Below, piece after piece: positions 32,776 to 35,213 of a stretch of 39,628 nucleotides of DNA (its first letter is position 1; every line of letters starts with the position of its first letter). Below the pieces are notes generated by a model, which was given only the letters and a program-made list of their open reading frames with translations, had not been told where the DNA came from and searched no databases. The position numbers were made by a program, and so were the translations under genes. The DNA comes from a virus (Duplodnaviria; Heunggongvirae; Uroviricota; Caudoviricetes), in IMG/VR virus record IMGVR_UViG_2565956762_000004, one strand, 5' to 3'.

Positions 32776-32845
32776 ATGTACCTCCGGTGTACATATTACA
32801 TGATTGAAATGAACCTTCAAGATACTTGTACCTTAACGGTACAAG
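32776..32845. promoter_or_regulatory. OR-like operator/promoter region with two palindromes
   Basis: ATGTAC-N7-GTACAT at 32776-32794 and CTTGTACC-N5-GGTACAAG at 32825-32845; candidate minus-strand promoter TTGAAG-N16-TAATAT (32820-32793). Confidence 0.45.
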
Positions 32846-32860
32846 GGTTTTAATTTCGTT

Positions 32861-33535
32861 ATGAAAACAATCCATGACATCCGGCGGTCTAACGCCAGAA
32901 AACTGAGAGATGGTGTTGGCGGGAATTCTTCCTTTGCCACTATGATTGATCGCGAGCCAACCCAGACCAGCAGGTTTATGGGAGATGGTGCTACTAAAAA
33001 TATCGGTGACAACATGGCACGACACATCGAAAAATGTTTCGACCTGCCTGTCGGATGGCTCGATCAAGAACACCAGACAACGAACATCACAAAAAAACCT
33101 GATGTTTCAATCACTAATAAACAAATCACATTAGTCCCTGTCATATCATGGGTACAGGCCGGAGCATGGAAAGAAGTTGGATATTCTGAGGTTGATTTGA
33201 GCACAGCAGAAACGTATCCCTGCCCTGTACCCTGTGGGGAAATGACTTATATCTTGCGGGTGATAGGTGATTCAATGATTGATGAGTACCGCCCGGGAGA
33301 CATGATTTTTGTCGATCCTGAAGTACCTGCCTGCCACGGTGACGACGTTATTGCATTGATGCACGATACAGGTGAAACCACCTTCAAAAGGTTGATAGAA
33401 GATGGGACACAGCGTTATCTCAAAGCGTTAAACCCAAACTGGCCTGAGCCTTACATTAAGATCAACGGTAATTGCTCTATAATTGGAACTGTGATTTTCT
33501 CAGGAAAACCAAGAAGATACAAAATCAAAGCCTAA
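32861..33535 (+). CDS. cI-like repressor (HTH plus S24 LexA-like peptidase domain)
   Basis: N-terminal HTH, C-terminal VIGDSM serine motif and downstream Lys; divergent from cro. Confidence 0.8.
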   Translation: MKTIHDIRRSNARKLRDGVGGNSSFATMIDREPTQTSRFMGDGATKNIGDNMARHIEKCFDLPVGWLDQEHQTTNITKKPDVSITNKQITLVPVISWVQAGAWKEVGYSEVDLSTAETYPCPVPCGEMTYILRVIGDSMIDEYRPGDMIFVDPEVPACHGDDVIALMHDTGETTFKRLIEDGTQRYLKALNPNWPEPYIKINGNCSIIGTVIFSGKPRRYKIKA

Positions 33536-33574: not shown

Positions 33575-33603
33575 TTGACAATGTACCCTTGAGATACATA
33601 ATG
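33575..33603 (+). promoter_or_regulatory. pL-like early promoter (TTGACA-N17-ATAATG) flanked by ATGTACC operator half-sites
   Basis: Consensus -35, 17-bp spacer, 5/6 -10; ATGTACC occurs at 33581 and 33601. Confidence 0.5.
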
Positions 33604-33691
33604 TACCTAAGAGAAACAACAAACAGGCAGGACGCCCACGAAGTAGCCGCCTGGGGCATATGAAGTCCAGGATGATTCGTTAGCAACAAAA

Positions 33692-33769: not shown

Positions 33770-33976
33770 ATGCACAAAACAGAACCCAAAATCGTCGCGC
33801 CCGGATACACAAATGAGGAAATTTACGAGTGGATGGCAAAGAAGCTGGCAGCTATAAACCAGCTTCGTGAAGTGCTGTCTTATCGACAGGAAACAATAGA
33901 CTCCTTAAAAAAACTGGATCAGGAAATCACGGTTTTATCACAGGATGTTACTTTAGATATTGTGCAGACAAATTAG
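33770..33976 (+). CDS. small early protein (68 aa) in the N-gene position, not Arg-rich
   Basis: Strong GAGGAGG Shine-Dalgarno before the ATG; no arginine-rich motif. Confidence 0.4.
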   Translation: MHKTEPKIVAPGYTNEEIYEWMAKKLAAINQLREVLSYRQETIDSLKKLDQEITVLSQDVTLDIVQTN

Positions 33977-34382
33977 GATCCCATTCATTTTCGTCAAAAT
34001 CATCAAAGTGATGAATTTGTGATCTCCAGTCTCGATAATCTAAAAATTTCTGGGCGGTTACGCTTATTTTATCAAGTGTGAGTTCATCCTGAATTGAAAG
34101 AAGAAGTTCATCAAATTTCATCTCATTAATCTGTTTTGGCATCCAGTGATGCTTCATCAGAATAAGGTGAACCAGAGCCTTTTTCCCATTCAACTGATTA
34201 TAGGGAGTGCCGAATTTCTTCCGGTGCTCATGTAAGACAAGATCCAGAAGAGTAAGTAATGTTGCCCTTGATTCCACTTTGCTTATTTCGACTGATGACA
34301 CTACCCCACTGATTTCAATGCCCCGATACTTTCCAACATTTTCACAGTGGGATTTGTACAACGTGTAGATATTACCGGACAT
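33948..34382 (-). CDS. reverse-oriented low-GC moron, hypothetical 144-aa protein
   Basis: Complete ORF antisense to the early operon; no motif recognised. Confidence 0.5.
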   Translation of the reverse strand: MSGNIYTLYKSHCENVGKYRGIEISGVVSSVEISKVESRATLLTLLDLVLHEHRKKFGTPYNQLNGKKALVHLILMKHHWMPKQINEMKFDELLLSIQDELTLDKISVTAQKFLDYRDWRSQIHHFDDFDENEWDPNLSAQYLK

Positions 34383-34397
34383 TTCTTTTCCTTTTGC

Positions 34398-34449
34398 GTT
34401 GTTGGGGATAACCAGATTAACCGAATCCTTGTTGTTGGGGAATAACCAG
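34398..34449. repeat. two direct repeats GTTGTTGGGG(A)ATAACCAG, 33 bp apart, upstream of the minus-strand moron
   Basis: Seen directly at 34398-34415 and 34431-34449. Confidence 0.35.
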
Positions 34450-34713
34450 GTCCACCTCGCCTGATGTGGCTAAAAGCAGGCACATAACAGCTAAGTATTT
34501 TCAACCAGAGAGAATCCTTAGCGTTGTGGTGAATGCTGCTCAGCGCACGCGGGTTAAGGTTGAGGCTGACAGTCGACCTTCTGTGGATACCCACCCGCCT
34601 GGTGTGCAACCTTCGCCAGGCACCGGGAGGCACCCGGCACCACAACTTTATGCTGTGTGTAGTCTTGGCGGTACCAGCTTGTACCCTTGCTTCCGGCTGG
34701 TACCGTCCTTTTT

Positions 34714-34802
34714 ACAAAACAGAGAAGAGCATCACCGGACGACGGGCTCATAACTCAATCCATCCGGGCGGCTGCCACCGCAGGTGTTCTTCTCTGTTTT
34801 GT
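34714..34802 (+). other. long imperfect hairpin (17-bp arms ACAAAACAGAGAAGAGCA / TGTTCTTCTCTGTTTTGT, ~53-nt GC-rich loop) within a GC-rich non-coding island
   Basis: Arms are reverse complements with one mismatch; a second 9-bp-stem hairpin lies at 34670-34704. Confidence 0.4.
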
Positions 34803-34850
34803 GGAGAAACTAATCGGCCTTGCAGGGTCGATATGATGAGGAGCAGCAAA

Positions 34851-35213
34851 ATGGCTAGCGAACGCAGTACTGATGTGCAGGCATTTATCGGGGAGCTGGA
34901 CGGCGGCGTATTTGAAACCAAAATCGGCGCAGTTCTCAGTGAAGTCGCTTCCGGTGTGATGAACACGAAAACCAAAGGTAAGGTCTCACTCAACCTGGAA
35001 ATCGAACCATTTGATGAGAACCGAGTGAAAATCAAACACAAACTCTCATATGTTCGCCCGACTAACCGCGGGAAAATTTCTGAAGAAGACACCACCGAAA
35101 CGCCGATGTATGTCAATCGCGGTGGTCGCCTGACTATTCTGCAGGAAGACCAGGGACAATTACTGACTCTTGCCGGTGAACCTGACGGAAAACTCCGCGC
35201 AGCAGGTCATTAA
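34851..35213 (+). CDS. hypothetical early protein, 120 aa (YfdP-like by size and neighbours)
   Basis: GAGGAG 7 nt before ATG 34851; the longer ORF-track N-terminus is Arg/Cys-rich and non-protein-like. Confidence 0.5.
   Translation: MASERSTDVQAFIGELDGGVFETKIGAVLSEVASGVMNTKTKGKVSLNLEIEPFDENRVKIKHKLSYVRPTNRGKISEEDTTETPMYVNRGGRLTILQEDQGQLLTLAGEPDGKLRAAGH

Follow-up and report, generated by a model that had tools for sequence, protein, structure and literature searches.

What does a prophage keep in a part of its early operon that holds no credible gene? This question is raised by a gap of 468 bp (positions 34383-34850) in a 39,628-nt stretch of viral DNA (IMG/VR record IMGVR_UViG_2565956762_000004), which is termed the window in the following. 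The window is an Escherichia coli lambdoid prophage of the e14/SfV/ST64B type, and the gap, here called the island, lies between a gene of the ECs1072 family and yfdP; its sequence is identical in many E. coli chromosomes. A preliminary description, made from the sequence, had regarded the island as a heavily structured non-coding stretch of the early operon and had named three candidates, a structured regulatory RNA, a processing or retroregulation site and a cis-acting antitermination RNA. The first of these applies to positions 34493-34713, which belong, as a divergent and mis-annotated member, to the known STnc100/PasD family of small RNAs (sRNAs). The long hairpin behind it (34714-34802, in the following hairpin 2) is a separate conserved element of the early-left leader. 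The island is modular, consisting of an sRNA cassette and a separate leader hairpin, which the preliminary description had missed. Taken together, we consider it likely that the island is the leader of the operon transcribed from the early-left promoter (PL) and carries two plus-strand RNA devices, an STnc100/PasD-type sRNA and the separate hairpin. The coordinates of all features are listed in Table 1.

Assignment to the STnc100/PasD Family

The preliminary description had proposed a covariance-model search against RNA family databases. In this search, evaluated at an E-value threshold, positions 34493-34716 matched the Rfam family RF02076 (STnc100) over the full length of the model (positions 1-206) with 41.9 bits and an E-value of 1.3e-7; at the gathering threshold no Rfam match was obtained over the whole window. 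The other Rfam matches (E up to 10) were only noise, namely DicF with 19 bits over the terminator t1, MIR1094 and the hairpin ribozyme, and no riboswitch or ribozyme class of Rfam matched the island. The invariant motifs of the family, UGGUGAAU (34527-34534) and CACCGGGAGGCACCCGGCACCA (34621-34642), are both present. A 21-nt block, CACCGGGAGGCACCCGGCACC, was detected in more than 120 IMG/VR contigs, which form 61 clusters at 90% identity, and according to BLAST these copies share little with the window outside the core motif. The family sample is composed of phage and viral collections. Genome contigs were scanned with the 15-mer CGTTGTGGTGAATGC, which is too short: among the matches listed most were chance hits in unrelated phyla, and only the contigs L156, L228 and L237 were useful.

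STnc100 is an Hfq-associated sRNA of Salmonella and E. coli, and its known copies are prophage-borne. Strain EDL933 harbors 11 of them; every copy is covered by reads of the transcriptome, and a Northern blot confirmed one. According to a 2026 preprint, PasD1 and PasD2 of enteropathogenic E. coli (EPEC) are Hfq sRNAs defined by RIL-seq (sequencing of interacting RNAs after their ligation) and structural homologues of STnc100, and the family is found mostly near Q, stx and lysis genes.

The alignment of 62 cores enabled the deduction of a consensus, which comprises a closing stem UGGUG/CACCA with covarying outer pairs, P1, a short stem around a variable insert, P3 and P4. A covariance model, R1, was built from this alignment. 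Within the window, whose sequence is part of the seed, R1 detects a single copy with 90.1 bits, and the next best match reaches 12 bits. Relatives outside the seed are found as well, i.e., phage LLS with 34 bits, L228 with 25 bits and L237 with 22 bits. The subfamily of the window is characterized by the P1 sequence GCGGC..GCACGC, and because all of its members score below the Rfam cut-off it escapes routine annotation. Tandem arrays of three to four STnc100-type cores, mostly about 250 nt apart, were detected on other contigs (L065:4376-5465, L024:369-994, L033:1722-2347 and L015:2320-3354).

Folding with comparative covariation, likewise proposed in the preliminary description, revealed that the pairing is kept in homologues, in the core as well as in hairpin 2. 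Among 83 members of the family 96.5% of the alignment cells are paired, compared with 80% in shuffles and 39-50% with slid partners, and 18 of the 25 core pairs change on both sides; the 83-member alignment was fitted to R1, by which these figures are somewhat flattered. Phage LLS carries P4 in the form GGUGG-AGGCA-CCACC, a compensatory change that keeps the AGGCA loop. A pseudoknot joins the segment 3' of P1 with the P3 loop; it can be formed with at least 6 bp in 87% of the members vs. 26% in controls with mismatched partners, and across the family at least 18 different complementary sequence pairs form it. In the window the pseudoknot competes with a local hairpin. The folding energy of the plus strand yielded a z-score of -5.13 for 34383-34860 (none of 100 shuffles was as good) and of -2.87 for 34493-34716 compared with shuffles.

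Such a domain might function by virtue of its fold and bind a protein or a small molecule, for instance as a decoy or trigger in phage-host defence, or as a sponge. Loop and junction nucleotides are invariant across at least 61 clusters (90% identity) which share little else by BLAST, and the pseudoknot, the tandem arrays and the activation of a retron toxin by a clone of the K-12 copy (see below) can be read in this sense. The absence of any riboswitch or ribozyme match in Rfam argues the other way, as does the observation that at this locus phages freely exchange the inner domain while retaining the closing stem and, in many of the relatives, also the terminator. Moreover, the published family members behave as Hfq sRNAs. 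We regard a structured RNA that acts through its fold as quite improbable for this locus.

Terminator, Single-Stranded Stretch and Promoter

Core and hairpin 2 are separated by the intrinsic terminator t1 and, upstream of it, by the single-stranded UGCUGUGUGUAGUCUU. The preliminary description had reported a 9-bp hairpin with TGTACC in its loop at this place. The hairpin exists and its loop carries the motif (34680-34685); its inverted repeat (34669-34678/34696-34705), however, extends to a stem of 12-13 bp and is followed by CC-UUUUU, a U-tract that had been missed. A simple terminator scan passed over t1 with its loop of 15 nt. Six pairs of the stem are changed on both sides in ST64B, sal3 and F1055, and in LLS a wholly different stem is still followed by a U-tract. 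Terminator-like hairpins 23-126 nt downstream of the core are present in 60 of 82 family members (73%) vs. 68 of 415 controls (16%). In the window the T-run of t1 is located 57 nt past the end of the core model, within the 20-80 nt used to delimit the family. Terminators of this Rho-independent type, ending in a U-tail, are usually the module to which Hfq binds.

The single-stranded stretch is a candidate seed. UGCUGUGUGUAGUCUU is kept in e14, ST64B, sal3, SfII, LLS and L237, even where the neighboring terminator stems differ, and occurs in 43 of 109 unique relatives; other core types have other sequences there. When a target of the seed candidate was sought within the window, only its own complement was found.

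The motif TGTACC in the t1 loop equals a half-site of the right and left operators (OR and OL) of the prophage repressor, and GGTACC occurs twice in the t1 stem. The island could thus be conceived as a DNA-level site, with repressor operators or a protein-bound inverted repeat in place of an RNA structure, and the arms of hairpin 2 are indeed more conserved in sequence than pairing alone requires. We give this explanation very little credence. A TGTAC-N7-GTACA dyad is absent from 34383-34850, the sites of the window being those at 32777, 32827 and 33582, so that the operator-like reading of TGTACC in the preliminary description fails for want of a full site. Phage mEp460 has an ST64B-type repressor and yet the same t1 sequence. 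Furthermore, in DNA or in a transcript of the opposite strand the G.U pairs of hairpin 2 would turn into A-C mismatches, and the U-tract follows the stem on the plus strand only. The half-site in the t1 loop is coincidental.

Sigma-70 promoters scoring at least 9/12 were found in 16 of 82 family members (20%), an own promoter is therefore not defining for the family. In 12 of these 16 members 0-3 nt separate the end of the -10 hexamer from the start of the model (controls 1.7%). Phages e14 and SfII carry a promoter candidate AAGACA-17-TATTTT (8/12), which is degraded in the window. The nearest recognizable plus-strand promoter upstream of the island is the PL-like promoter. The K-12 supplements of SMRT-Cappable-seq contained nothing at the locus of the e14 copy; as no transcription start data for K-12 were found there, we infer the 5' end of the sRNA.

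Published RNA Data for the e14 Orthologue

Prophage e14 of E. coli K-12 carries a copy that is 89% identical to the window over 34452-34840 and annotated as the gene ymfH (b1142). Term-seq of K-12 yielded three 3' ends on the ymfH strand, at 1201423, 1201257 and 1201195 (Adams et al., 2021, supplementary files 1 and 3). The first and strongest of them corresponds to position 34493 of the window, which is the exact start of the Rfam match, the second to 34660 within the conserved single-stranded stretch, and the third to 34723, which is 10 nt past the U-tract of t1 and inside the 5' arm of hairpin 2. Because position 34493 coincides with the strongest 3' end, it is probably a processing site that would create the 5' end of the sRNA at 34494.

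In the re-analysis of Hfq RIL-seq data (Bar et al., 2021), the "ymfH CDS" (coding sequence) is represented by 81 and 117 chimeric fragments with three and four partners. Its SIC values of 0.667 and 0.75 mean that every chimera contains it as the second RNA, the position characteristic of an sRNA. The sRNA scores are 0.113 and 0.094, with a candidate threshold of 0.1 and scores of 0.10-0.12 for dicF. Moreover, ymfH is listed in the YmfT iModulon together with ymfJ, xisE and intE, and this membership fits expression driven by PL.

A ymfH clone was also among the prophage-derived triggers of the RcaT toxin of retron-Sen2 in a genome-wide screen (bioRxiv 10.1101/2020.06.22.160242). If ymfH encodes no protein, the trigger may be the RNA.

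Coding Status of the Island

The Prokaryotic Genome Annotation Pipeline (PGAP) lists 34526-34836 as a frameshifted hypothetical protein. Together with the intact ymfH open reading frame (ORF) of 103 codons in e14 and the effect of the ymfH clone on the retron toxin, this annotation could point to a degraded protein-coding gene, and a coding remnant had been named in the preliminary description as the outcome that would speak against its reading. The K-12 frame, however, is open only through a 1-nt deletion in the P4 loop. Its start codon is a GTG within the closing stem, without Shine-Dalgarno sequence. Substitutions in the three codon positions of the ymfH frame amount to 8/13/13 between window and e14 and to 22/24/26 between ST64B and e14, i.e., there is no excess at third positions. 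Indels in the frame measure 1, 1, 1 and 21 nt, and ST64B contains stops in all three frames. The existing sequence variation keeps the RNA pairs instead. A protein-coding origin is therefore extremely improbable; the stretch 34493-34713 is non-coding, and ymfH is a phantom gene.

The claim that the island lacks a credible reading frame was confirmed: ORFs are present, but without a conserved frame and without a Pfam or NCBIfam match for them or for YmfH. These ORFs comprise 95 and 49 amino acids, an in-frame upstream extension of yfdP and, on the minus strand, 114 amino acids. The yfdP frame is open for 106 codons upstream of the real start, so that a spurious ORF of 226 amino acids (34533-35213) extends across the structured RNA; R, C and H are abundant in its upstream translation. 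A small ORF, LFTKQRR...LLCFVEK (34687-34836), is open in four phages and was rejected as well: it starts with TTG inside t1 without Shine-Dalgarno sequence, and its apparent amino acid conservation mirrors the two stem arms of hairpin 2.

Hairpin 2

The long hairpin, described earlier as having arms of 17 bp, proved to be real. The arms (34714-34738 and 34778-34802) measure 25 nt with 84% complementarity, and their first 17 positions pair with one G.U. The stem consists of 20 consecutive pairs, followed by the A.A/C.C internal loop and three further pairs. By means of the loop motif GACGGGCTCATAACCCAATCCA the hairpin was traced in related phages (at least 125 loci; 109 unique sequences). The outer stem occurs with 33 different combinations of arms, and compensatory changes affect position 4 (A-U in 11, C-G in 16), position 9 (G-C in 24, C-G in 8) and position 15 (A-U in 24, G-C in 6). 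Pairs of the G.U type that are valid on the plus strand only were found at position 19 (T-G in 30 of the 33 variants) and at position 16 (G-T); since they would be A-C mismatches on the other strand, selection acts on the plus-strand RNA.

In 112 of the 125 loci hairpin 2 is located downstream of, and co-oriented with, a gene for a cI-type repressor, at a median distance of 863 nt. Genes following the hairpin are yfdP (93 loci), yfdQ (82) and yfdR (91); in e14, SfII and F1055 it is followed instead by xisE, a phosphatase gene or a recombination gene. In the 40 commonest variants examined, with one exception, the hairpin begins directly after the U-tract of a terminator or within a few nt of it. 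Upstream of it, 89 of the 109 unique sequences carry the closing-stem core GTTGTGG...CCACAA with at least 17 different inner domains. Six unique sequences are devoid of the core, among them L266, L308, L314, L321, L324 and L325, and in such loci PL is followed by a short leader, then by a terminator t0 and directly by hairpin 2. Both t0 and t1 are present in LLS and ST64B. Judged from these arrangements, core, seed and t1 behave as a cassette inserted between terminator and hairpin 2.

Phage F1055 (L248:395-530) and 20 further unique sequences contain a different inner domain (UAAUCCGCGAAAUGGCGCGG...) within the closing stem GUUGUGG...CCACAAC. It is devoid of P4, is not recognized by R1 and lies ahead of the same seed, terminator and hairpin 2. 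In the window, the inner arm of hairpin 2 (34735-34767, CACCGGAC...CAUCCGGGC) resembles the P4 region (34621-34641, CACCGGG-AGGCA-CCCGGC) with an insertion; this likeness may represent an old duplication or chance.

A near-continuous duplex of at least 20 bp, by which a site for RNase III is recognized in a transcript, is present in hairpin 2. Because of this continuous duplex and the K-12 3' end inside the 5' arm, a putative processing site of the RNase III type or an insulator is our best guess for its role, though a weak one. In this respect the processing site among the three original candidates may apply to the long hairpin.

The third candidate, cis-acting control, has to be weighed at this point. 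In this explanation the core, hairpin 2 or both would alter early-left transcription as a put-like antitermination element or as an attenuator, and polymerase starting at PL could thereby pass t0 and t1 and reach yfdP to xis and int in phages apparently devoid of an N-like protein. In all relatives examined, the whole stack is placed after PL and ahead of the first early-left gene. One to three leader terminators precede that gene (two in LLS and ST64B, one in some contigs), and read-through has to be explained. None of the neighboring genes was found to encode an N-like protein; YmfL resembles CII, and no function is assigned to the others. Additionally, the pseudoknot, like the invariant nucleotides, points to a partner bound by the RNA, and hairpin 2 is tied to a terminator U-tract. 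On the other hand, the core is dispensable here, as shown by the six unique hairpin 2 sequences without it and by the different inner domain of the F1055-type phages. The core lies downstream of t0 and cannot act on it, hairpin 2 is transcribed after its adjoining terminator and cannot stop this terminator from forming, and elsewhere in prophages the same fold occurs as an autonomous unit of promoter and terminator, even in tandem arrays. A put-like antiterminator was rejected: the nun-cI interval of phage HK022 gave only chance 7-11-mers with blastn, HK022 contains no match to R1, and the single copy of the window has no counterpart in the rightward operon. We consider cis-acting leader control unlikely.

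Location in the Early-Left Operon

The preliminary description had placed the island in the early operon, and this is borne out; promoter and operator assign it to the early-left operon, and its structured RNA is that of the plus strand. The genes ymfL (CII-like) and ymfT (cro-like) are encoded on the minus strand. The repressor gene ymfK/cohE (32861-33535, plus strand) is followed by a small ORF, and the OR operators TGTACC-N5-GGTACA (32777-32793 and 32827-32843) are located between cro and the repressor gene. Directly 3' of the terminator of the repressor gene, a near-consensus promoter is overlapped by an operator of the same dyad type, which is likely the PL/OL of the prophage. Downstream of the island follow yfdP (34851-35213), yfdQ, yfdR, xis and int, all on the plus strand. 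From the position of promoter and operator and from the gene order it follows that the island belongs to the leader of the early-left (PL) operon. The GC content of 34383-34850 is 0.526, compared with 0.381 in the left and 0.447 in the right flank, in agreement with the GC-rich character noted before; 34493-34807 reach 0.552 and the whole window 0.492, so that the island is only modestly above the mean of the window. The start of yfdP about 50 nt past the long hairpin was given correctly.

Mosaic joints detected by BLAST lie at 34452, 34665 and 34813-34827 within the island. The piece 34813-34853 travels with yfdP and not with hairpin 2. A homologue of the leader module B is found in phage LLS about 15 nt past the -10 hexamer of PL. 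The direct repeats, flanked by the divergent start of the ECs1072-family gene on one side and by the leader hairpin on the other, recur at this place in Salmonella phage F1055 (L248:190-245) and in contig L324 and may be a regulator-binding or divergent-promoter region.

Further observations concern the sequence between PL and the island. The first 60-145 nt or so after the PL-like promoter (window 33622-33679; L004:2170-2227; L003) are kept with 88% identity in ST64B and 93% in e14 and represent a further leader module with unassigned role. This conserved stretch holds two terminator-like hairpins of the minus strand (33639-33623 and 33711-33692); they follow the convergent ECs1072-family gene on its downstream side and could end its transcription. 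The gene itself (phrog_5286; 33948-34382, minus strand) is antisense inside the early-left operon between PL and island, overlaps the 3' end of a small plus-strand ORF (33770-33976) and is replaced by ymfI in e14. In the rightward early region of Salmonella phage ST64B a match to the sRNA IsrK (L004:21-97, minus strand) scores 64 bits, above the Rfam cut-off; it has no counterpart in the window.

Table 1. Features of the island and its upstream control region; positions refer to the window.
Feature	Position	Strand	Remarks
PL-like early-left promoter	33575-33602	+	TTGACA-16-CATAAT, near-consensus; directly 3' of the repressor gene's terminator
Repressor operator TGTACCCTTGAGATACA	33582-33598		Overlaps PL-like promoter; dyad type as in the two OR sites
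Two direct repeats TTGTTGGGGA(A)TAACCAG	34393-34456		17-19 nt, 34 bp apart
Leader module B	34452-34493	+	Hairpin GCCUG-N13-CAGGC and tail; mosaic joint at 34452
sRNA of STnc100/PasD kind	34493-34713	+	Structured 5' domain, single-stranded stretch, terminator
Core fold	34520-34651	+	R1 match and covariation
Closing stem P0	34523-34531 with 34638-34646	+	
P1	34535-34539 with 34545-34550	+	
Variable hairpins	34556-34580, 34583-34594	+	
P3	34597-34604 with 34614-34621	+	
P4	34623-34637	+	CCGGG-AGGCA-CCCGG
Pseudoknot	34556-34562 with 34607-34613	+	AAGGUUG with CAACCUU
Candidate seed UGCUGUGUGUAGUCUU	34651-34666	+	Single-stranded, between core and t1
Intrinsic terminator t1	34667-34713	+	12-13-bp stem (34667/8-34679 with 34695-34706/7), 15-nt loop, U5 at 34709-34713
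Hairpin 2	34714-34802	+	Stem of about 23 bp, A.A/C.C internal loop, three-way-junction cap CCGGA...UCCGG and GCGG...CCGC
Small hairpin, Shine-Dalgarno sequence, yfdP start codon	34813-34853	+	Hairpin 34813-34820/34825-34832; GAGGAG 34838-34843; start codon 34851

Proposed Model

In the model that we consider likely, an sRNA of about 220 nt would arise within the PL transcript or start at an unrecognized weak promoter. Its 5' end would be cut free near 34493/34494, beside an AU-rich single-stranded stretch, and its 3' end would be made at t1. The sRNA is predicted to act in trans as an Hfq-dependent base-pairing regulator via the single-stranded segment 34651-34666, with the structured, five-helix 5' domain protecting it. 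The terminator t1 would also limit read-through into yfdP-yfdQ-yfdR-xis-int. Hairpin 2 may serve as a double-strand-specific (RNase III-type) cutting site or as an insulator, parting sRNA and leader from the downstream mRNA. The route from the PL transcript via the cut at 34493/34494 to the end at t1 is suggested, not proven, by the K-12 ends, the RIL-seq data, the iModulon and the absent promoter.

Several observations weigh against this model. The score of the window in RF02076 lies below the gathering cut-off of 47 bits, and the early-left relatives stay under it as well (39.5, 37.5, 35.1 and 29.2 bits). Canonical family members often have a promoter abutting the closing stem; in the window no sigma-70-like promoter was found within about 130 nt upstream of the core (hexamer pairs of at least 7/12, plus strand, 34383-34530). 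The transcript evidence comes from the e14 copy, which is 89% identical and damaged in P4, and not from the prophage of the window, its sRNA scores (0.11 and 0.09) are marginal, and the 3' end near t1 maps to 34723, beyond the U-tract and not within it. A deeply conserved, pseudoknotted 5' domain exceeds the needs of a base-pairing sRNA, and a position in a leader so rich in terminators (both t0 and t1 in LLS and in ST64B) would also suit a cis-acting element. Finally, the role of hairpin 2 is deduced only from its shape and one 3' end.

Significance

At least part of the stretch was found in 2,781 of 5,426 complete E. coli genomes, and in 1,626 of them 80% or more of it is present. As the score of the RNA falls slightly short of the Rfam threshold, annotation pipelines enter the stretch as "hypothetical protein," "frameshifted" or "YmfH." The identity as an STnc100/PasD member removes a phantom gene from the uncharacterized set of K-12 and explains the sRNA-like behavior of the "ymfH CDS" in Hfq RIL-seq. 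It also widens the range of the family from morons of the late region to an early-left leader next to the immunity region, a place at which expression would be coupled to prophage induction.

The kind of sRNA is already known; hairpin 2 is a lead into the control of the early-left operon. In a wider reading, which is tentative and rather doubtful, the terminator U-tract and hairpin 2 would form an undescribed cis-regulatory unit that gates the early-left operon (yfdPQR, recombination genes, xis-int) of a large group of N-less lambdoid phages, among them SfV, SfII, ST64B, e14, mEp460, cdtI and Stx2c phages, and into which cassettes of the STnc100 fold have been repeatedly inserted. The STnc100 domain may then act through its fold, binding a protein or RNA polymerase, besides stabilizing a base-pairing RNA. 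The family-wide pseudoknot and the terminator-linked hairpin (at least 125 phage loci) offer testable handles on xis/int and early-left control in N-less lambdoid phages.

Comparison with Known Systems

The closest counterpart is ymfH of e14, a direct orthologue in the same layout of repressor, antisense moron, RNA and then xis-int. It differs in its annotation as a protein of 103 amino acids, opened by the 1-nt deletion that damages P4, and in xisE as the next gene in place of yfdP. With STnc100 the window copy shares closing stem, P1, P3, P4, spacer and intrinsic terminator, the same invariant motifs and the prophage-borne nature. In contrast, P1 of STnc100 reads CCCCC...GGGG and that of the window copy GCUGC...GCACGC, and the window copy is located in the PL leader beside the immunity region and not in the late region with Q, stx and lysis genes, lacks a directly adjoining sigma-70 promoter and is followed by hairpin 2. 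PasD1 and PasD2 (EPEC E2348/69) are, by their description, prophage-encoded Hfq-dependent sRNAs of the same fold family, whose related copies carry different seeds and presumably have different targets; they lie in the late region, near Q and lpxR.

A likeness to putL and putR of HK022 consists in a structured leader RNA just past an early promoter and before terminators, in a lambdoid phage without obvious N. The put elements, however, comprise about 70 nt with two stem-loops and occur in both early operons, whereas the core of the window is a multi-helix pseudoknot of about 125 nt that is present once and dispensable in relatives. Hairpin 2 resembles the RNase III sites of lambda (N-leader and sib) as a near-perfect duplex of more than 20 bp in the PL transcript which adjoins a terminator and, like sib, is completed only on read-through. 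Unlike these sites it is situated upstream of xis and int and not downstream, and its cleavage site is putative. For its three-way-junction cap and the conserved A.A/C.C loop we know of no counterpart.

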